From assembly GCA_019661945.1 (NCBI GenBank), contig JAIFWI010000003.1:1126-65125 (forward strand): 64,000 bases of DNA, in the 5' to 3' direction. Below the pieces are notes generated by a model. The model was not told the DNA's origin. It worked only from the letters and a program-made list of their open reading frames with translations, and did no database searches. The position numbers and the translations under genes were made by a program. Shown here in pieces: positions 4,330 to 48,870 of this stretch; within the stretch, counting starts at the first letter, position 1; the number at the start of each line of letters is the position of its first letter. The stretch is from Candidatus Parcubacteria bacterium. Its GTDB lineage: Bacteria > Patescibacteriota > Minisyncoccia > Phycocordibacterales > JAKAEA01.

Positions 4330-4403
4330 GCGAGTATAGCTCAGGTGGTTAGAGCGCGTCACTGATAATGACGAGGTCCCAGGTTCGAGTCCTGGTACTC
4401 GCA
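4330..4403 (+). tRNA. tRNA-Ile (anticodon GAT)
   Basis: Manual cloverleaf: acceptor GCGAGTA/TACTCGC, D-arm GCTC-AGGTGGTTA-GAGC, anticodon stem CGTCA/TGACG with loop CTGATAA, and T-arm CCAGG-TTCGAGT-CCTGG. The discriminator is A and no CCA is encoded. Confidence 0.85.
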
Positions 4404-4557
4404 CCGTTGACATAATGGCCTCAAGTTGTATTATTACCTCGGAGTGTGACCGATAGTCTTTCAAGGAGGTGACCTATCACCCAATAGTCTGAGTCCGTCC
4501 AGAAAGATCGGAGCGTCCGGTCTTGCGATAAAGGAGTACGCATCTCTCGAGGATCTC

Positions 4558-5025: not shown

Positions 5026-6456
5026 GTGGTTAATAAGAAAACAAAGATAGTAGCAACGATTGGTCCGGCAACACAGTCAGAAGAAAAACTGACAGAACTT
5101 TTACATGCAGGATTTAATGTCATGCGTATGAATTTTTCGCATGGTGATTTTGCCGAGCATCAGGTGAAGGTTGATAATTTGAAAAAAGCTATTAAAAAAA
5201 CCGGTATTCCAGCAGCCATCATGCAGGACTTGGCTGGACCAAAAATCCGTATTGGTGATTTTAAAAATGGTTCAATTACCTTAAAGGAAGGTCAAACATT
5301 TACCATTACTACTGATGAAGTTGAGGGGGATGAAACGCGTGTATCTGTTAATTACAAACCGCTTCCAAAAGAAGTAAAAGTGGGCGGCTTCATTATGGTC
5401 CATGATGGCCGTAAAAAATTAGAGATTACTCAGATTAACGGTAATGATGTTGTTACTAAAGTTCTTATAGGTGGCGAGATTAAAGGCCGCCGTGGTGTGA
5501 ATCTTCCTGGAGCATATCTTTCTATTTCATCACTGACTGAGAAAGATAAAAAGGATATTGAGTTTGGCATTAAAAATAATGTGGACTTTTTTGCTTTTTC
5601 ATTTGTGCGCCGACCGTCTGATGTTAAAGAATTGCGAGACATTTTAAATAAACAAAAATCAGAGGCCCTTATTATTGCAAAAATTGAAGATCAGGAAGCC
5701 ATTGAAAATATTGATAAGCTTATTGCCCTGGTTGATGGGGTCATGATTGGGCGAGGAGATTTAGCTATTGAAATTGGCGCTGAAAATATGCCTTTGGTTC
5801 AAAAAATGATTACAGCAAAATGTAATGCTGCTGGTAAGCCCGTCATCACCGCTACTCAAATTCTTGAATCAATGATAAAAAATCCGGTGCCAACTCGAGC
5901 TGAGGTTTCAGACATTGCCAATGCTATCTTTGAAGGCACTGACGCTATTATGCTTTCAGAAGAGACAACACTCGGTGATTTTCCTGTTAAAGCAGTTGAG
6001 ACCATGAGTCTTGTTTCAAAGACTGTTGAAATGGGAGACTTGTATCAGCAACATATTCTGGATATGCAGAAATTGAAGCATGAGCTTATCAGTGAGCGAG
6101 TGGCTGATGCGGTCACGAATGAAGTCGTAGACATTGCAAATGCGGTTAAAGCCAAGGCTATTGTTGCTTTCACCGATTCAGGATTTACGGCTCGAATGAT
6201 TTCTCGTTACAAACCTCTCCAGCCATTAATTGCTTTTACACCAAACGAAAAAACACACAATCAATTATTGTTAAGTTTTGGCGTTACTCCAATTCTCATT
6301 GATAAAACTACTATGCTTAACGATGTTATGAAGCACGCAAAAGATTACTGTTTGAAAAATAACATTGGCAAGAAGGGCGATAAAATAGTCCTGGCCCTTG
6401 GCATGCCTTTCGGCAAGAAAGTAGATACCAATATGCTCTTGGTGGAGACAATCTAG
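5026..6456 (+). CDS. pyk: pyruvate kinase
   Basis: The N-terminus KKTKIVATIGPA...MRMNFSHG and the motifs MVARGDLGIE-like (MIGRGDLAIEIG) match Pyk over 476 aa. The start codon is GTG. Confidence 0.9.
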   Translation: MVNKKTKIVATIGPATQSEEKLTELLHAGFNVMRMNFSHGDFAEHQVKVDNLKKAIKKTGIPAAIMQDLAGPKIRIGDFKNGSITLKEGQTFTITTDEVEGDETRVSVNYKPLPKEVKVGGFIMVHDGRKKLEITQINGNDVVTKVLIGGEIKGRRGVNLPGAYLSISSLTEKDKKDIEFGIKNNVDFFAFSFVRRPSDVKELRDILNKQKSEALIIAKIEDQEAIENIDKLIALVDGVMIGRGDLAIEIGAENMPLVQKMITAKCNAAGKPVITATQILESMIKNPVPTRAEVSDIANAIFEGTDAIMLSEETTLGDFPVKAVETMSLVSKTVEMGDLYQQHILDMQKLKHELISERVADAVTNEVVDIANAVKAKAIVAFTDSGFTARMISRYKPLQPLIAFTPNEKTHNQLLLSFGVTPILIDKTTMLNDVMKHAKDYCLKNNIGKKGDKIVLALGMPFGKKVDTNMLLVETI

Positions 6457-7108: not shown

Positions 7109-7190
7109 GGGCACGTGGCGGAACTGGCATACGCGTACGTCTCAGAAGCGTATCCCGCAAGGGTTGAGGGTTCGACTCCCTCCGTGCCCA
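7109..7190 (+). tRNA. tRNA-Leu (anticodon CAG), type II with long variable arm
   Basis: Manual cloverleaf: acceptor GGGCACG/CGTGCCC, 3-bp D-stem with GG in the loop, anticodon stem TACGT/GCGTA with loop CTCAGAA, variable arm CCC-GCAA-GGG, and T-arm GAGGG-TTCGACT-CCCTC. Length is 82 nt without CCA. Confidence 0.8.
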
Positions 7191-7240
7191 CTCGAGAAGG
7201 CACAATTGAGATATGGTTCATTCTAGGCTAGAATATAGTA

Positions 7241-15187: not shown

Positions 15188-16912
15188 ATGGCAGCACAAA
15201 ACGATCCAATTACATATTTTGCTGAAACTGACTCACGAAATAAACGGGTGCCTTTTGGTATTAAAGCCAGCGACCGAACTCGACATGTGTATGTTATTGG
15301 AAAAACAGGTATGGGAAAATCGACCTTGCTCGAAAATATGGCTGTTCAGGATATTAAAAATGGCGAGGGTCTAGCCTTTATTGATCCTCACGGCAAGACT
15401 GCGGATCTTTTGCTCGAGTATGTACCGCAGGAGCGTATTAAAGATGTCATTTATTTTGCGCCGTTTGATCTTGAGCATCCTATTTCTTTTAATGTTATGG
15501 AAGATGTTGGGTATGAACGCCGACACTTGGTAGCATCGGGTCTCATGAGCGCCTTCAAAAAGATTTGGGTTGACGCTTGGTCAGCTCGTATGGAATATAT
15601 TTTGAATAATATTCTTTTGGCTTTACTTGAATATCCCGACTCAACCCTTATTGGTGTGAATCGCATGCTCAGTGACAAAGATTACAGAAATAAGGTGGTA
15701 GAAAATATTTCTGATCCCTCGGTTAAAGCTTTTTGGACGGATGAATTTGCAAAATATGGAGATCGCTATATGCAGGAAGCTGGTGCCGCAATTCAGAACA
15801 AAATCGGTCAGTTCGTTTCTAATCCCTTGGTCCGAAATATCATCGGCCAGCCGAAATCTACCTTCGACATTCGAAAAATAATGGATGAGAAAAAGATTCT
15901 CATCATAAACCTTTCAAAAGGCCGGGTAGGTGAAGCTAATGCCAATCTGTTGGGTAGCATGCTTATTACCAAGATTTATCTCGGCGCATTATCACGTGCA
16001 GATGTATCCGAAACAGTCTTGAAAAAACAGCTGCCTAATTTCTATCTGTATGTTGATGAATTCCAATCATTTGCCAATGAATCATTTGCCGATATTCTTT
16101 CTGAAGCTCGAAAATATAAACTAAACTTAACCATTGCCCATCAGTATATTGAACAGATGAGTGAAGAAGTCCGGTTCGCGGTTTTCGGCAACGTCGGCAC
16201 AATGGTTGTCTTTCGAGTCGGTGCCTATGATGCTGAATTTCTGGAGAAAGAATTTTTCCCGACCTTCACTAAAGAAGATTTAGTCAGTCTTGGTTTTGTA
16301 CAGACATACTTGAAGCTGATGATTGATGGTGTGACCTCGCCTCCATTTTCGGCCACAACCTTGCCGCCGATTGAAAAGCCGCTCATCTCATTTAAAGAAG
16401 ATATTATTAAAAACTCCCGAGAGGTATACACTCGTCCGCAGATGGAGGTGCAAGATGAAATTAAAAAATGGCATGAGCCCATTAGAATTGAAGGCCGAGA
16501 TGATAAAAGGAGAATTAGCCAGCCGTCGCCAAGGAATACCGAGCAGAGAAATCCTGAACCGATGCGTCCGATGGTAAGTTCAATGCCGAAGCCTACTGTA
16601 CCTAAGCGTGAAGCCCAGGAAATGGATTTGCGTAAAGCAATTGCTGAAAGTTATAAAAAAAATGTTCCAGAAAGAAAGGATCTGACAACCCAACCTAAAA
16701 AAGATAAGGGACCAACACCGCAAAATATGAGTGCCTTGCGATCTGTTTTGGCGCAGGTGATTAAGGAGGAAAAGCCAAAAGAACCTACTCCCCAAGTCCC
16801 AAAACCTTCAGTACAGCGGGAATCTCGTCCAGAGCCCAAACAAGAAGCCAAAGCAAAACCCAATGAAGTACCGGAGGAAGTGTTGAGGAAGATATTGGAA
16901 ATTGAACAATGA
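15188..16912 (+). CDS. TraG/TraD/VirD4-family (type IV coupling-protein-like) P-loop ATPase, cytoplasmic, with Pro/Lys-rich C-terminal tail
   Basis: Walker A VIGKTGMGKST, FIDPHGK, a YLYVDEFQSF Walker B-like motif, and an R..Y.....AHQ...Q TraG-D_C-like motif. There is no TM segment. The last ~150 aa are low complexity. Confidence 0.5.
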   Translation: MAAQNDPITYFAETDSRNKRVPFGIKASDRTRHVYVIGKTGMGKSTLLENMAVQDIKNGEGLAFIDPHGKTADLLLEYVPQERIKDVIYFAPFDLEHPISFNVMEDVGYERRHLVASGLMSAFKKIWVDAWSARMEYILNNILLALLEYPDSTLIGVNRMLSDKDYRNKVVENISDPSVKAFWTDEFAKYGDRYMQEAGAAIQNKIGQFVSNPLVRNIIGQPKSTFDIRKIMDEKKILIINLSKGRVGEANANLLGSMLITKIYLGALSRADVSETVLKKQLPNFYLYVDEFQSFANESFADILSEARKYKLNLTIAHQYIEQMSEEVRFAVFGNVGTMVVFRVGAYDAEFLEKEFFPTFTKEDLVSLGFVQTYLKLMIDGVTSPPFSATTLPPIEKPLISFKEDIIKNSREVYTRPQMEVQDEIKKWHEPIRIEGRDDKRRISQPSPRNTEQRNPEPMRPMVSSMPKPTVPKREAQEMDLRKAIAESYKKNVPERKDLTTQPKKDKGPTPQNMSALRSVLAQVIKEEKPKEPTPQVPKPSVQRESRPEPKQEAKAKPNEVPEEVLRKILEIEQ

Positions 16913-39712: not shown

Positions 39713-41959
39713 ATGATGAGAACTTTACAAACATATCTCAAATATATCGTACTTACCGGTATATTTATTATTCCTTTTATCCATCTGATTGTTGCTAACT
39801 CTTATTTCTTTCCTTTTATTACAGGCAAGGGATTTGCCTTCAGGATTATTGTCGAAATTATTTTTGGAGCCTGGGCAATTCTAGCCTTAACGCATCCCCA
39901 CTATCGTCCTAAAAAATCCTGGATTATGTGGAGTATACTGGCTTTTATTGCCATTATTACTTTGGCTGATATCTTCGGCGCAAATCCATATAAAAGTATC
40001 TGGTCAAATTATGAGCGAATGGAAGGTTTGATTACCCTTCTTCATCTCGGTGCCTATTTTGTTATTGCGGCGACCGTTCTCTCAACCGAGCGATTATGGA
40101 ATTGGTTCTGGAACACCTCACTCGCAGCGAGTGTCATTATCATTTTCTATAGTTTTTTCCAAATTTTTGGCTTGATCACTATTAATCAAAGTAGTACACG
40201 TCTCGACGCTACATTCGGTAATGCCACATATCTTGCCGTCTATATGCTCTTTCATGTTTTTATTACGGCGTATCTCGTTATTTCAAAGCGCTATTTCCTG
40301 TTTATGCCGCATGTTAATAAACTCAAGAGTAAACTGATTGTGGGCATACCGCTTATTCTTCTGCAGGCTATTATTCTCTACAAGACAGCCACTCGAGGAG
40401 CTATGCTTGGTCTTATTGCCGGAATCTTGTGTGCTTCAGTACTTATAGTTATCTTCGAACGGCGCCGGCCACGATTGAAAAGGGTAGCTCTTGGTTTTAT
40501 CGGTGCTGTTCTTATTGTTATCGTTGGATTTTTGGCCGTTCGCCAAACATCATTTGTTCAGAATAGTCCGGTCCTGGTCCGTTTCGCTTCTATCTCAATT
40601 AATGACAAAACAACAATTTCTCGTTTCATTTTAGCCCGGATGGCCTTTGAGGGTTTCAAAGAGCGTCCAATACTCGGTTGGGGCCAGGAAAATTTCAACT
40701 ATGTCTTTAATAAATATTATGACCCAGGTCTCTATGGTCAGGAGCAATGGTTTGATCGAACTCACAATGTTATTACTGACTGGCTTATTGCCGGGGGTGC
40801 TCTTGGTTTATTGGCATATCTCAGTTTCTACGCTTCACTATTATGGGGTATTTGGCGCAAACACCGAGGAGAAGAGTATTTCACTATTCCTGAGAAGAGT
40901 ATTTTGACCGGACTCTTGCTTGCATATTTCATTCACAATCTTTTTGTGTTCGATAATCTCATCAGTTATATTCTTTTCTTGGGAGTTGCCGCCTATGTCT
41001 ATCGTCGCAGTATTGGTGAAGTAGAAATTCGAGCAGGAGAGCGACCACAGGTAAGTAATCGTTTTATTGCTCCTGTCGCTCTTATTGCGACCATCCTTCT
41101 TATATATACTGTTAATGCCAAACCAATTAAAGCCAATACGGCACTTATTCAAGCCTTGCAGACTCATGTGCCAGTAGATCAAAACAATCAAAGTTTAGTC
41201 TATGGCGGCGATGCTACCAAGAATCTGGAATTCTTCAAGAAAGTCATTGAATATAAGACCCTGGCTACTCCCGAGGCTCGAGAACAGCTTCTAACAGCAG
41301 CTGAGCGGGTAATTACATCCCAGCAGGCTATTACTTCTCGGGATGAATTGGTCCAGTATGCTGTGGGGCAAATGCAAGAGCAGATTAAAGAGACTCCTGA
41401 TGATGCCCGCTATTATGTTCTCTTTGGATCTTTCTTTAATCGTATTGGTCAGCCTCAATTGGCAATTCAGCAATTTACTGAAGCTCAAAAGTTATCTCCG
41501 GGTAAGCAGACGATTTTGTTTGAACTTGCATCAGCGTATGCAAACATGGAGCAATATACAGAAGCAGAGAAGTTCATGAAACAGGCCTTTGATCTTGAGC
41601 CGAATTATGAGCAGGCTCGAATGCTCTATGCTGCGAGCGCAATTTATGCCAAGCATGATGCTTTAGTTACAGAGATTCTAAAACCATTACCTCGAAAAAC
41701 TGTTGTTAATAGTGATCAGCTTATTCAAGCCTATTATCGAACCGGTCAAACTAAGAAAGTGATTGATCTGCTCAAAGAGCGGGTAGCGCTTAGTCCAAAT
41801 GATATCCAGAACCATATTTCTCTGGCGGCAGGCTATCTTCTAATTGAAGATCGAAAGAATGCCGTTGCTGAGCTCAATAAAGCAGCCGAAATTCAGCCGG
41901 CTTTTCGGGCTCAGGCAGATGAGTATATAAAAGAAATCGAAGCTGGCCGAAATCCATAA
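39713..41959 (+). CDS. O-antigen ligase-like (Wzy_C/WaaL-family) polytopic membrane protein with C-terminal TPR repeats
   Basis: It has many TM helices and a ligase-like periplasmic loop region. The last ~300 aa are TPR-like. The chosen start is the internal ATG at 39713, which avoids overlap with the divergent wzm. Confidence 0.7.
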   Translation: MMRTLQTYLKYIVLTGIFIIPFIHLIVANSYFFPFITGKGFAFRIIVEIIFGAWAILALTHPHYRPKKSWIMWSILAFIAIITLADIFGANPYKSIWSNYERMEGLITLLHLGAYFVIAATVLSTERLWNWFWNTSLAASVIIIFYSFFQIFGLITINQSSTRLDATFGNATYLAVYMLFHVFITAYLVISKRYFLFMPHVNKLKSKLIVGIPLILLQAIILYKTATRGAMLGLIAGILCASVLIVIFERRRPRLKRVALGFIGAVLIVIVGFLAVRQTSFVQNSPVLVRFASISINDKTTISRFILARMAFEGFKERPILGWGQENFNYVFNKYYDPGLYGQEQWFDRTHNVITDWLIAGGALGLLAYLSFYASLLWGIWRKHRGEEYFTIPEKSILTGLLLAYFIHNLFVFDNLISYILFLGVAAYVYRRSIGEVEIRAGERPQVSNRFIAPVALIATILLIYTVNAKPIKANTALIQALQTHVPVDQNNQSLVYGGDATKNLEFFKKVIEYKTLATPEAREQLLTAAERVITSQQAITSRDELVQYAVGQMQEQIKETPDDARYYVLFGSFFNRIGQPQLAIQQFTEAQKLSPGKQTILFELASAYANMEQYTEAEKFMKQAFDLEPNYEQARMLYAASAIYAKHDALVTEILKPLPRKTVVNSDQLIQAYYRTGQTKKVIDLLKERVALSPNDIQNHISLAAGYLLIEDRKNAVAELNKAAEIQPAFRAQADEYIKEIEAGRNP

Positions 41960-42078
41960 TCTTGACTCCTTACCAGAATTTGATATAATACATGAGTGAG
42001 TGCCAAAGGTGGCTCTAACAAATGTAAGCGCATTATCCGCCGTAAGGTGGATTTTGTGTTTTTGGACTTCAATACTTA

Positions 42079-42147
42079 TGGACATGACGGGAGTCGAACC
42101 CGCAAGCCTCAATTGGTAAGGTTGAGACTCCTAACCGTAGCATGCCC
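42079..42147 (-). other. tRNA-like element, atypical (9-nt anticodon loop, short D-region)
   Basis: Minus strand: acceptor GGGCATG/CATGTCC (one G-U pair), T-arm GCGGG-TTCGACT-CCCGT, anticodon-like stem CTCAA/TTGAG with loop CCTTACCAA. No canonical D-stem is present. Confidence 0.4.
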
Positions 42148-42294
42148 ATGATATGAAATTACCAATTCATACCAGTCCATAGCTTACCAACTCCAAGATA
42201 AAATTTCGCTCAAAAAAATCTAAAGAAATAATTAGTGTATACAAAAATGCCGGACACGATGCCCGGCAATCTTGAAAGTCTCAACCTTACCAAT
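42112..42294. repeat. 18-bp perfect inverted repeat pair (ATTGGTAAGGTTGAGACT at 42112-42129; AGTCTCAACCTTACCAAT at 42277-42294)
   Basis: Direct comparison. The left copy is the anticodon-arm region of the tRNA-like element. Confidence 0.7.
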
Positions 42295-42455
42295 GCATAT
42301 AGTATATACCTGAAGAAATATAGGTCAAGAAACACGATATTGAACATTTTGACTATATAATGTAGACTAGCTTCAGTTGTCTCTAGGCGTGGTTGATGGC
42401 CGCACTCACTTTTTACATTTGTTATATAGGAGCTCGCCCCATCAACCGCTCGTGG

Positions 42456-43484
42456 ATGCAACCTCAAGAACACATACTACTCAAAGATTTTACGACCTTT
42501 AGAATCGGGGGACCTGCCCGATATTTTGTTGCTGTGAAGAATACTGAAGAACTCAGAGAGGCAATTCAATTTGCCCATTCAAAACAGCTCCCGATATTTG
42601 TTTTAGGCGGAGGATCAAATGTCCTTATTTCCGATAAGGGTTTTCCCGGTCTTGTCATTAAAATAGAAATAAAGGGTATTGAATACAAAGAACGAGAAGG
42701 GGAAGACGTTGAAGTCATTGTTGGAGCGGGAGAGAACTGGGACGATGCTGTCGGGCACATAGTTTCTCGAGGATTATCTGGTCTAGAAAATCTCTCACTT
42801 ATTCCCGGCAGTGTTGGTGCCGCACCCGTTCAAAATATTGGAGCGTACGGCGCCGAAGTGAAAGATACTATTTCTTGGGTGGAAGTTTTTAATACAGAAA
42901 CATATACGCTGGAACAATGTTCAAAAGAACAATGTCAGTTTGATTATCGTGACAGCATATTTAAAAAACCAGAAGGTAAAAAGTATGTTATAACTCGGGT
43001 TGGATTTAAGCTTTCAAAAAAGCCGAATGTAAATATAACCTATAAAGATATTAGCAATTATATTTCTGAACATAAGGTGGAAGATCTTTCGATACAGAAA
43101 ATTCGTGACATTGTTATTGAAATCAGAACAAAAAAGCTGCCGAACTTAAAAGAATACGGCACTGCCGGTTCGTTCTTTAAGAATCCAGTTGTTTTAAAAG
43201 AGCAGTATGATGAACTCGTTAAAAAATATTCCGGTTTACCTGGCTTTACAGGGGCTTCTCATGGAGATGTAAAGATTCCCGCTGCCTGGATACTTGATAC
43301 TCTTTGTAATTTCAAAGGATATCGTGATGGTGATGCTGGTGTTTACAAAAATCAAGCATTAGTATTAGTAAATTTCGGCAGTGCAACGGCTGAAGATATT
43401 TCCTCTCTTTCAGAAAAAATGATTGCCTGTGTCAAAGAAAAAACATCTATTACTCTAGAAAAAGAAGTACAAATAATTTTTTAA
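42456..43484 (+). CDS. murB: UDP-N-acetylenolpyruvoylglucosamine reductase
   Basis: FTTFRIGGPA...LGGGSNVL and the MurB FAD-binding pattern. The chosen start is the internal ATG at 42456 (the frame is open from 42393). Confidence 0.85.
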   Translation: MQPQEHILLKDFTTFRIGGPARYFVAVKNTEELREAIQFAHSKQLPIFVLGGGSNVLISDKGFPGLVIKIEIKGIEYKEREGEDVEVIVGAGENWDDAVGHIVSRGLSGLENLSLIPGSVGAAPVQNIGAYGAEVKDTISWVEVFNTETYTLEQCSKEQCQFDYRDSIFKKPEGKKYVITRVGFKLSKKPNVNITYKDISNYISEHKVEDLSIQKIRDIVIEIRTKKLPNLKEYGTAGSFFKNPVVLKEQYDELVKKYSGLPGFTGASHGDVKIPAAWILDTLCNFKGYRDGDAGVYKNQALVLVNFGSATAEDISSLSEKMIACVKEKTSITLEKEVQIIF

Positions 43485-47989: not shown

Positions 47990-48870
47990 ATAGACACTTA
48001 GTGTCCAAATTTAACTCTATTTTATTATTTATTTATAAAGTTTTTAAGTTCAATTATCTATAATTCGTTGGACACTTAGTGTCTCAACTTATGAGAAATA
48101 TCGAACTTTCAGTCGGCAGTTACTATCATTTATTTAACCGAGGTGTGGATAAAAGATTAGTCTTTCTCGATCAAGATGATATCGGCCGGTTCCTTTTAAG
48201 TATGAACCTATTTAATTCGACTATTCCTCTAGGTAGTATCTACCAAAGTAATTTAGTGAAAAAGAAGGAAGAACGTGGACACTTAGTGTCCAAACCAGTA
48301 GAAAGGCTGGTTGAGTTTATATGTTATTGTCTAAATCCTAATCATTATCATTTCCTCATTCAACAGCTTGCTGATAAGGGAATAGAGAAATTCATGCACA
48401 AGCTCGGAAATGGATATACAAAATATTTCAATCATAAATACAAACGCACAGGCTCTCTATTCGGAGGAAATTATAAATCAGTTTTAATAAAGTCAAATGA
48501 ACAACTTTTACATACAAGTGCATACATAAATCTGAACAATAGGATTAGTGAAAAGGGAAGTATATTTGATCTATCTAAATCAAGCTGGGGCGAGTATATC
48601 TCTAATCAAGACGGAATATGCAATAAAGATATAATCCTTGAACAGTTCACTGATAGTCAGGTCTATAAGTCTTTTGCTGAGAGTTCCTATATAGATATTC
48701 AAGAAAGAAAAATACTAAGAAAAGAGCTTGAAATATGGGGAGTGGACACTTAGTGTCTATAAGCTATACTAAAGTTGTAACAAATCCCAATCCTATCCAG
48801 TTATAACAGGTGTAAAGGTCGGCAAAATGAACTAGTGGACCGGGATGGGTAGGGAAAACCCATCCTGTAA
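47990..48870 (+). mobile_element. RAYT/IS200-like element: HuH-Y1 transposase gene with four REP-like palindromes and a terminal hairpin
   Basis: The GGACACTTAGTGTCC-type palindrome occurs at 47993-48005, 48071-48083, 48278-48290 and 48744-48756. A strong hairpin lies at 48841-48867. Confidence 0.6.
48091..48753 (+). CDS. REP-associated tyrosine transposase / IS200-family TnpA-like (Y1 HuH)
   Basis: YYHLFNRGV N-terminal motif, HuH motif PNHYHFLI, and a Tyr-bearing GGNYKSVLI...YINLN region. One palindrome copy lies inside the ORF and one overlaps the stop. Confidence 0.7.
   Translation: MRNIELSVGSYYHLFNRGVDKRLVFLDQDDIGRFLLSMNLFNSTIPLGSIYQSNLVKKKEERGHLVSKPVERLVEFICYCLNPNHYHFLIQQLADKGIEKFMHKLGNGYTKYFNHKYKRTGSLFGGNYKSVLIKSNEQLLHTSAYINLNNRISEKGSIFDLSKSSWGEYISNQDGICNKDIILEQFTDSQVYKSFAESSYIDIQERKILRKELEIWGVDT

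Follow-up and report, generated by a model that had tools for sequence, protein, structure and literature searches.

The murB locus and its variable spacer

We analyzed a 64,000-nucleotide (nt) stretch of a Candidatus Parcubacteria genome (contig JAIFWI010000003.1, positions 1,126 to 65,125; the whole stretch is called the window here), in which the spacer in front of murB, the gene for UDP-N-acetylmuramate dehydrogenase, holds a tRNA-like element on the minus strand (42079..42147) together with a perfect inverted copy of part of its anticodon arm. The murB gene lies on the plus strand (42456..43484) and encodes 342 amino acids (aa) from the ATG at 42456, a product that is 100% identical and equal in length to the deposited protein P0001. 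The initial annotation of this stretch, made from the sequence without database searches, gave the gap before murB as 430 bp, which agrees with the start of the longest open reading frame (ORF; 433 bp to the TTG at 42393) but not with the ATG, which is 496 bp away. The order of an O-antigen-ligase/TPR (tetratricopeptide repeat) gene, murB, and secA is kept in many relatives, the closest ones included.

Two conserved features of the plus strand flank the region that carries the tRNA-like element. The first (41962..42062, +) consists of a promoter-like site, P1 (TTGACT-16-TATAAT with TG, 11/12), and a small RNA or leader of ~65 nt in the window that starts with GUGAGUGC and ends at a terminator (42035-42052) followed by a T-run. 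The second (42376..42462, +) is a murB leader hairpin, the apical part of which (42402-42433, GCACUCAC...UUACAUUUGUUA...GGAGC) is complementary to the P1 small RNA. Most relatives share both, that is, a strong promoter with a 65-100-nt small RNA or leader that has the 5' end GUGAGUGC, a box ..AAUGU.., and a GC-rich terminator set in a GCGUAA/UUUGCG stem, and a long murB leader hairpin with the apical sequence GCACUCAC...ACAUU...UUGGAGC. Besides the window, small RNA and leader are found just upstream of murB in relatives L002-L020, L231, and L232.

The small RNA and the murB leader covary between lineages. Duplexes of cognate small RNA (box A removed) and variable leader average -11.6 kcal/mol, compared with -7.6 kcal/mol for non-cognate combinations, and 0 of 20,000 permutations came out as low, in a test whose sequences are not independent of one another. 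Compensatory switches are seen in the window (TAACAAATGTAA/TTACATTTGTTA), in L019 (AAGCAAACATC/GATGTTTGCTT), and in L017 (AAATGTGTATA/TATACACATTT), and 19 of the 29 predicted pairs of the leader hairpin show compensatory changes. Neither the small RNA nor the leader matches any Rfam 15 family, and together they are a candidate new riboregulator of murB in Paceibacteria.

The distance between the small-RNA terminator and the leader is 40-82 nt in most relatives, 123 nt in L017, 202 nt in L019, and 330 nt in the window. The initial annotation had named relatives without a tRNA at this position as evidence against its reading, and this is the situation found, since murB is preceded by neither a tRNA nor anything tRNA-like in the 20 genome relatives and 4 metagenome loci compared. 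Because the spacer is variable and relatives have no tRNA-like sequence there, the element and its partner are placed in an insert, and set against these relatives, ~42063-42330 is shown, at the level of sequence, to be a lineage-specific insert of ~270 bp between the conserved small RNA and the murB leader. L001, L230, and L233, the closest relatives (62-66% MurB identity), have neither the spacer nor any of the small RNA and leader region; in them, no more than ~60 bp separate the stop of the O-antigen-ligase/TPR gene from the start of murB (just a few bases in L230), which means that the regulatory region was lost or gained within the clade.

The spacer of L019 has an insert of a different kind. 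Two copies of a MITE-like (miniature inverted-repeat transposable element-like) sequence of ~133 bp with 21-36-bp terminal inverted repeats (CCGCACACTAASTTTGC...) lie 2.3 kb apart in L019 (3706-3838 and 6010-6143), each directly after a terminator T-run and one of them in the small-RNA-to-murB spacer; their hairpin accounts for a weak Rfam match, 'MIR530', at 6005-6149. The presence of this unrelated insert shows that the position tolerates insertions. For the insert of the window, exact searches in viral contigs (with T-arm plus acceptor, the arm hairpin, or the 5' half) and BLAST of 286 bp against phage and plasmid collections returned nothing. Matched in no other sequence searched, the element and its partner are a curiosity and not an established new system.

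A tRNA-like element with an intact top half

Read on the minus strand from 42147 to 42076, the sequence is GGGCAUG-CUACGGUUAG-GAGUCUCAA-CCUUACCAA-UUGAGGCUU-GCGGG-UUCGACU-CCCGU-CAUGUCC-A-UAA, of which the tRNA-like element comprises 69 nt up to the discriminator A73 at 42079, with CCA not encoded. The two acceptor strands (42147-42141 and 42086-42080) form GGGCAUG/CAUGUCC with seven of seven pairs, among them G1:C72, G2:C71, and one G:U (G3:U70), and in the ARAGORN drawing this stem can be extended to 9 bp through flanking AU. The T-arm (42103-42087) is canonical, GCGGG-UUCGACU-CCCGU, with a 5-bp T-stem and a T-loop of the UUCRANY form. Between them stands a long stem (5' strand, 42130-42122; 3' strand, 42112-42104) that is made of the 5-bp anticodon stem CUCAA/UUGAG and four further possible pairs, 9 bp in all, around a loop of 9 nt (42121-42113, CCUUACCAA). 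A D-loop-like linker of 10 nt (42140-42131) joins the acceptor stem to this extended stem, and no nucleotide lies between the extended stem and the T-arm; with the four extra pairs left open, the element gains a 4-nt variable loop, GCUU.

The initial annotation had described the good acceptor stem, the canonical T-arm, and the CTCAA/TTGAG stem around a 9-nt loop just as they stand in the sequence, and its remark that a proper D-stem is absent is essentially right, since only CUAC/GGAG is possible, with three pairs and an A:G mismatch, and this stem requires a U8/N9 linker that does not exist (ARAGORN drawing). Position 8 is a C, and the element has neither a U8/N9 linker with a 3-4-bp D-stem nor the canonical 7-nt anticodon loop with U33 and a purine at 37. 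As far as the sequence can tell, these features show that the element is tRNA-derived, that it retains the tRNA "top half" (acceptor stem and T-arm), and that it is unable to serve as a decoding tRNA, because the U8 linker and the D-stem 5' strand are lost and the loop is 9 nt long. The suggestion of a decayed tRNA holds in part: the element is tRNA-derived and fails all tests of a working tRNA, but every remaining helix (acceptor, anticodon, and T) is intact, unlike the outcome of long neutral decay.

Detector scores agree with a tRNA-related sequence outside the known families. Default ARAGORN does not call the element, which also lies below every Rfam gathering score. When relaxed to 90% of its threshold (-ps90), ARAGORN calls it tRNA-Val(UAC), with UAC centered in the 9-nt loop, as the only extra call across the 64-kb window, and the metazoan-mitochondrial mode calls it as well. 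Ten Markov-shuffled windows produced four calls at -ps90 (~0.4 each), so that the cloverleaf score is weak by itself. A tRNA-Glu with a 156-nt intron, composed by the intron mode of ARAGORN from the upstream arm and the 3' half, was rejected, as its acceptor stem is poor and it is called only at -ps85. A permissive Rfam scan of 41900-42500 gave as its best match transfer-messenger RNA (tmRNA, RF00023), with 26.8 bits against a gathering score of 47 and an E-value of 5.9e-9 that is local to this 601-nt search; the alignment covers the element end to end, with 13 nt in place of the 304-nt mRNA-like part. The tRNA model RF00005 (gathering score 29) is not listed in that scan, where two unnamed lower-scoring matches of the same clan were suppressed.

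A relationship with tRNAs, or with the tRNA-like domain of tmRNA, is clear from the sequence, but by score the element belongs to neither family. Of the checks proposed in the initial annotation, ARAGORN calls the element at -ps90 but not at default, and the Rfam covariance-model match stays below its gathering score. The annotation had counted the absence of any tRNA-like covariance score as evidence against itself, and what is present instead is a significant sub-threshold match in the tmRNA/tRNA clan.

One of its proposals was an unusual tRNA with an expanded loop, which as a decoding molecule would be a quadruplet or frameshift reader. The intact acceptor, anticodon, and T helices and the UAC that relaxed ARAGORN centers in the loop are what such a tRNA would have, but there is no U8, no real D-stem, no homologue in the searches made, and no promoter, and the scores fall below the detector thresholds. 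The D-arm defect makes decoding implausible, and this idea, to which we give almost no credence, is effectively refuted by structure.

Resemblance to ordinary tRNAs

A pattern scan over viral and metagenome collections with GGTTAGGAGN{20,32}GGGTTCGANTCC, anchored on the D-loop and T-loop of the element, gave, among the matches listed, only ordinary tRNAs (Glu, Gly, Cys, and others) and eukaryote-like tRNA-derived repeats. The best of these matches are tRNA-Glu genes of the candidate phyla radiation (CPR) type, such as L226, which reads GCCCCGG TC CTCC AACGGTTA GGAG A CTGGC CTTTCAA GCCGG CAAC GCGGG TTCGATT CCCGT CCGGGGT A. The element in the same layout reads GGGCATG CT ACGGTTA GGAG T CTCAA CCTTACCAA TTGAG GCTT GCGGG TTCGACT CCCGT CATGTCC A. 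By this comparison, which is a lead and not a test, with a reference set biased by the search pattern, the linker and D-stem 5' strand of the element are shorter by 5 nt, its anticodon loop is longer by 2 nt, and the rest is in register. Within that pattern-biased set, the D-loop and T-arm resemble CPR tRNA-Glu(UUC) and tRNA-Gly(UCC).

Other parts of the element resemble other tRNAs, the acceptor stem and central UAC being like those of tRNA-Val and the acceptor and T-arm like those of the tRNA-Leu of the window (20/25 nt). The two genuine tRNA genes of the window are likewise without an encoded CCA. One, tRNA-Ile-GAU (window 4330-4405, +), stands alone without an rRNA operon, and the other, tRNA-Leu-CAG (window 7109-7191, +), has a promoter-like -10 whose last base is 8 nt from the mature 5' end, so that its precursor would have almost no leader.

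The metagenomes also hold a sequence family, GGTGGTGTAACGGTTAGGAGGTTGGACTTGCGATC...GGTCGYGGGTTCGA (L110, L113, L119, L127, L137, L159, L198, L229, and others). At least eight of its best-matching members were checked with ARAGORN and went uncalled (L110 and L113 were not in this check), and the family probably represents tRNA-derived repeats of eukaryotic or symbiont metagenomes, unrelated to the element.

Relation to tmRNAs without a coding region

Coding-region-less tmRNAs, which consist of the tRNA-like domain (TLD) only, are documented in mycobacteriophage DS6A, jakobid mitochondria, and Mallomonadaceae plastids (PMC4131195, PMC11915505, PMC3590771), and a DS6A-like TLD-only RNA is mentioned, in a work cited within PMC4131195, as inhibiting tmRNA, perhaps via titration of SmpB. 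As a calibrator we used the 83-nt element of DS6A (L234, 28478-28560), which gives the same end-to-end alignment to RF00023 at 43.2 bits, with GG..CGAC after the acceptor stem and G-AC before the T-arm. This score is below the gathering score of 47, implying that such mini forms are missed by standard Rfam annotation. The DS6A TLD-only tmRNA, though published, is unannotated in its GenBank record.

The element of the window could by analogy be a tag-less mini-tmRNA that is charged with alanine, binds SmpB, and either rescues ribosomes without tagging or titrates SmpB. Such a molecule would explain why tmRNA is the best Rfam match, with an alignment over the full element that skips the mRNA-like domain, as the alignment of DS6A does, and it would fit G3:U70, G2:C71, A73, the missing D-stem, and the short hairpin that replaces the coding part. 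Nevertheless, 26.8 bits falls short of the 43.2 bits of DS6A; the 5' (U)CGAC and the 3' GGAC beside the T-arm, both retained in DS6A, are gaps in the alignment of the element; the tmRNA search of ARAGORN is negative; the D-loop, 3' D-stem strand, position 26, variable loop, and T-arm fit an ordinary tRNA-Glu better; and the Rfam tmRNA model is prone to false positives (PMC4131195). A tag reading frame, a resume codon, and pseudoknots are absent from the element, with only 13 nt between its helix strands. A mini-tmRNA therefore seems improbable to us, and the element, which shares the architecture of TLD-only tmRNAs and not their sequence signatures, is not classed with them.

Inverted copies of the anticodon arm

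The 18-mer AGTCTCAACCTTACCAAT is present at 42112-42129 (-) and, inverted, at 42277-42294 (+), where the initial annotation had found it; the two arms are 100% complementary and 147 nt apart. Two matches to the 18-mer were seen in 0 of 100 shuffles, even with 3 mismatches tolerated, which places the repeat far beyond chance, and a third full copy was not found anywhere in the 64-kb window. The left arm (42112..42129, -) corresponds to RNA positions 19-36 of the element, which take in the anticodon stem on its 5' side, all of the loop, and one further nt, and the right arm (42277..42294, -) reads AUUGGUAAGGUUGAGACU on the minus strand. Two degenerate inverted copies lie between them, UUGGUAAGCUAUGGACU (42190-42174, -), complementary to the element arm at 13 of 17 positions, and AAUUGGUAA (42167-42159, -), complementary at 9 of 9. 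The loop-complement core UUGGUAA is kept in all three upstream copies, with mismatches confined to the stem-complement part, and the heptamer TTACCAA is clustered, with 4 of the 20 copies in the window lying inside 185 bp (P about 6e-5).

The two arms had also been proposed as the ends of an inverted-repeat insertion that captured tRNA sequence. This view finds no support in that form, as the left arm is part of the tRNA-like element: the arms cannot be insert termini, because the 5' and 3' acceptor strands, one between the repeats and the other beyond them, match each other along their full length. We rejected a MITE or other repeat-bounded mobile insert on the same ground, that the acceptor stem spans the repeat boundary, and further because the arms enclose 183 of the ~270 inserted bp and the 64 kb hold no second copy. 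A retron noncoding RNA was rejected as well, with no reverse transcriptase among the large window ORFs and a terminator directly after the first arm.

A candidate antisense transcription unit

The right arm is framed by transcription signals of the minus strand. A promoter-like site, P2 (TTGACC-16-TATACT, 42301..42328, -; 10/12), has its -10 hexamer ending at 42301, and the standard spacing from -10 to +1 places the expected start at ~42294, which is the first base of the arm. Downstream lies an intrinsic-terminator-like hairpin, UGCCGGGCA-UCG-UGUCCGGCA (42241..42268, -), with 9 pairs, 6 of them GC, followed by UUUUUGU; this is the GCCGGAC..CCGGC hairpin that the initial annotation had noticed beside the repeat, which thus has 9 bp and a minus-strand T-run. 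The -10 of P2 ends 7 nt before the arm and the terminator hairpin begins 8 nt past it. P2 and terminator delimit a candidate small RNA of ~55 nt, from 42294 to about 42240 (fold z = -2.9), composed of AUUGGUAAGGUUGAGACU-UUCAAGAU-terminator. The arm would form its 5' end, or seed, all 18 nt of which can pair without mismatch with the loop and the 5' stem strand of the tRNA-like element.

Within an 801-bp region, promoter-like sites are near chance (3 found, 2.3 expected) and terminator-like sites are enriched (6 compared with 0.7 expected). From the site densities we estimate that the register of promoter, arm, and terminator would arise by chance with a probability of about 1e-4, and we infer, 148 nt upstream on the strand of the tRNA-like element, a compact transcription unit of P2, the 18-nt segment, and the terminator. 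The initial annotation was silent on the place of the right arm within this promoter-seed-terminator unit and on the variable spacer of a conserved regulatory RNA region in which it lies.

A non-decoding pseudo-tRNA that is paired with an antisense small RNA is our best reading of these features, held tentatively at a probability of roughly 0.38. In the proposed mechanism, the small RNA would attack the exposed 9-nt loop of the element, as antisense RNAs do on hairpin-loop targets, and pairing would spread into the stem and unfold the arm, giving an 18-20-bp duplex that may be a substrate of RNase III. In this way the small RNA might set the level or the fold of the pseudo-tRNA or might itself be titrated by it. 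The 18-mer would have originated by inverted duplication of the element arm, the two degenerate sequences being older copies that keep just the loop-complementary core. Consistent with this pairing, neither the promoter and terminator nor any helix of the element shows damage.

Several points weigh against the antisense pair. For the tRNA-like element, we could discern no promoter of its own, whereas the -10 of tRNA-Leu ends 8 nt before the 5' end. If read-through from P2 were the sole source of the element, the 18-20-bp helix would form in cis and, in the computed fold, destroy the tRNA-like structure. Promoter-like hexamers are common in AT-rich spacers, and expression of the pair is a prediction. 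No homologue of the element was found in viral contigs, by BLAST against phages and plasmids, or among the matches listed in the metagenome pattern scan, and support for function from conservation or covariation is absent for this reason. The next-closest MurB in the protein collection searched is 67% identical, so that a close relative for comparison of the locus is lacking. Finally, a newly inserted inert block would appear equally intact.

That last point leads to the closest rival, an inert relic, in which a tRNA gene fragment or pseudogene that arrived or decayed at this site, with a 5-nt D-arm deletion and a 2-nt loop expansion, acquired an inverted 18-nt copy of its arm by template switching during replication (a quasi-palindrome event) and is neither expressed nor under selection. 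The insert is a singleton without homologues in the searches made, in a spacer that varies, is absent from L001, L230, and L233, and in L019 gained an unrelated MITE-like insert; the tRNA-like element has no promoter of its own; shuffled windows yield ~0.4 ARAGORN calls each at -ps90; and pseudo-tRNAs and tRNA fragments are frequent in bacterial genomes (e.g., PMC3399842, PMC4131195). On the other hand, the three helices, the T-loop consensus, the terminator, and the promoter stand unblemished within an AT-rich spacer, the inverted copy lies exactly between promoter and terminator in register with the expected start, and the degenerate copies retain precisely the loop-complementary core, all of which may be compatible with a very recent event. 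An inert relic is a possible account of the locus that we rank slightly below the antisense pair, and the difference between the two is mainly whether anything is transcribed.

The repeat might instead have its role in plus-strand RNA. If murB is read from P1 through the first terminator, the 18-bp repeat could act as a clamp that folds the insert away in the 5' untranslated region and leaves the conserved 5' boxes free to contact the leader hairpin, and the tRNA-like shape would be incidental ancestry. Relatives do show a strong P1 and, from the first terminator to the leader, nothing that matches a promoter consensus; in the computed fold of the plus strand over 41994-42470 (z = -4.6), the 18-bp helix prevails and the leader hairpin is kept; and the insert of L019 is likewise bounded by an inverted repeat. 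However, of the ~270 inserted bases only 183 lie within the repeat, the signals for starting and ending transcription inside the insert point to the minus strand, and a TATAAT at 42356-42361 could be the own promoter of murB, which makes this arrangement unlikely.

The same repeat could in principle act as an invertible DNA switch, with recombination between the 18-bp arms flipping the 147-bp segment, so that its terminator would come to lie on the plus strand and block murB read-through while the tRNA-like gene is taken apart. The geometry, in which perfect 18-bp inverted arms flank 147 bp, with a terminator between them and a promoter right beside them, is compatible with phase variation. 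Known switches, in contrast, usually have the promoter inside the invertible segment, a single orientation was seen here, and the 50 large window ORFs (at least 150 aa) include no integrase or invertase, with the reservation that a recombinase could be encoded elsewhere; we hold such a switch to be very improbable.

A more far-reaching form of the antisense pair would make the element an expressed alanine-accepting "top-half" tRNA mimic that acts off the ribosome, as a decoy or a donor, under a dedicated antisense small RNA. The alanine identity set recognized by alanyl-tRNA synthetase (AlaRS) is A73, G2:C71, G3:U70, and G4:C69 (PMC9976931); read from its sequence, the element has the first three, and its 4:69 pair is C:G and not G:C. 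These determinants, together with a minihelix of the kind acted on by RNase P, the CCA-adding enzyme, and EF-Tu, are what suggests the mimic, and the broken D-arm and 9-nt loop would keep it off the ribosome. As a decoy, it might titrate SmpB, AlaRS, or EF-Tu, so that toxin and antidote would both be RNAs, by analogy with the inhibitory TLD-only RNA cited in PMC4131195. As a donor, it might supply non-ribosomal alanine for cell-wall peptide synthesis beside murB, by analogy with Fem-type transferases, which recognize G2:C71 of acceptor helices (PMC2655667). No Fem/MurM/MprF protein or reverse transcriptase is found among the 50 large window ORFs, and this elaboration is a long shot.

Genomic surroundings

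The only mobile-element-like gene of the window is a 224-aa ORF (48079-48753, +) with a weak IS200-like Y1 transposase match (PF01797, E 1.2e-6), possibly a transposase associated with repetitive extragenic palindromes or one of the IS200/IS605 type. A HerA/TraG-like ATPase (15188-16912, +) with DUF87 and type IV secretion system coupling-protein domains heads a glycosylation cluster (16.9-39.6 kb) of glycosyltransferases, methyltransferases, dTDP-rhamnose genes, and a Wzm/Wzt exporter, which ends at the O-antigen-ligase/TPR gene.

Significance

Expression of the pair would make it a rare instance, among bacteria, of a small RNA with a dedicated tRNA-like target, and would bring a chromosomal non-decoding "top-half" tRNA mimic to the candidate phyla radiation, the RNA biology of which is almost unexplored. 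If it is inert, the insert would document cleanly how a piece of tRNA, together with its copy made by template switching, can give rise in one step to a promoter-seed-terminator unit with a ready target, one route toward new small-RNA genes. The flanking small RNA and murB leader, which are conserved and covary, may be more interesting than the tRNA-like element, as a candidate new regulator of peptidoglycan precursor synthesis, and the insert shows that the spacer between them withstands large insertions.

Comparison with known systems

Among known tRNA-derived sequences, tRNA-Other of Bacillus cereus and other bacterial pseudo-tRNAs (PMC3399842) are like the element in being derived from tRNA, outside a role in translation, alone in intergenic sequence, and undetected by default. 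In contrast to them, the defect of the element is specific, with the D-stem 5' strand lost, the loop longer by 2 nt, and the other helices perfect, there is no genomic island or integrase nearby, and the element has a perfectly complementary 18-nt partner close by. The TLD-only tmRNAs share with the element a length of about 65-85 nt, an acceptor stem with G3:U70, a T-arm, the absence of a D-stem, and a short hairpin in place of the mRNA-like domain, but the element is without the CGAC and GGAC motifs that flank tmRNA helix P2, scores 16 bits under DS6A, and has a D-loop and variable-loop region like those of an ordinary tRNA.

For the predicted pairing, the nearest parallels are antisense RNAs that attack a hairpin loop of a neighboring RNA, as in hok/sok, CopA/CopT, and type I toxin-antitoxin pairs. 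In these systems, as predicted for the window, the small RNA has its seed at the 5' end, stops at an intrinsic terminator, and is encoded beside its target, and complementarity extends over the loop and one stem strand. The window differs in that both RNAs are predicted, no toxin ORF is present, and the target is a tRNA-like RNA and not an mRNA. A tRNA-linked target is known from 3'ETS-leuZ of Escherichia coli, a sponge of small RNAs with its pairing site in the spacer of a functional tRNA operon. There, as proposed here, a tRNA-associated transcript pairs with a small RNA and could set its threshold, whereas the pairing site in the window would be the anticodon arm of a non-functional tRNA-like element.

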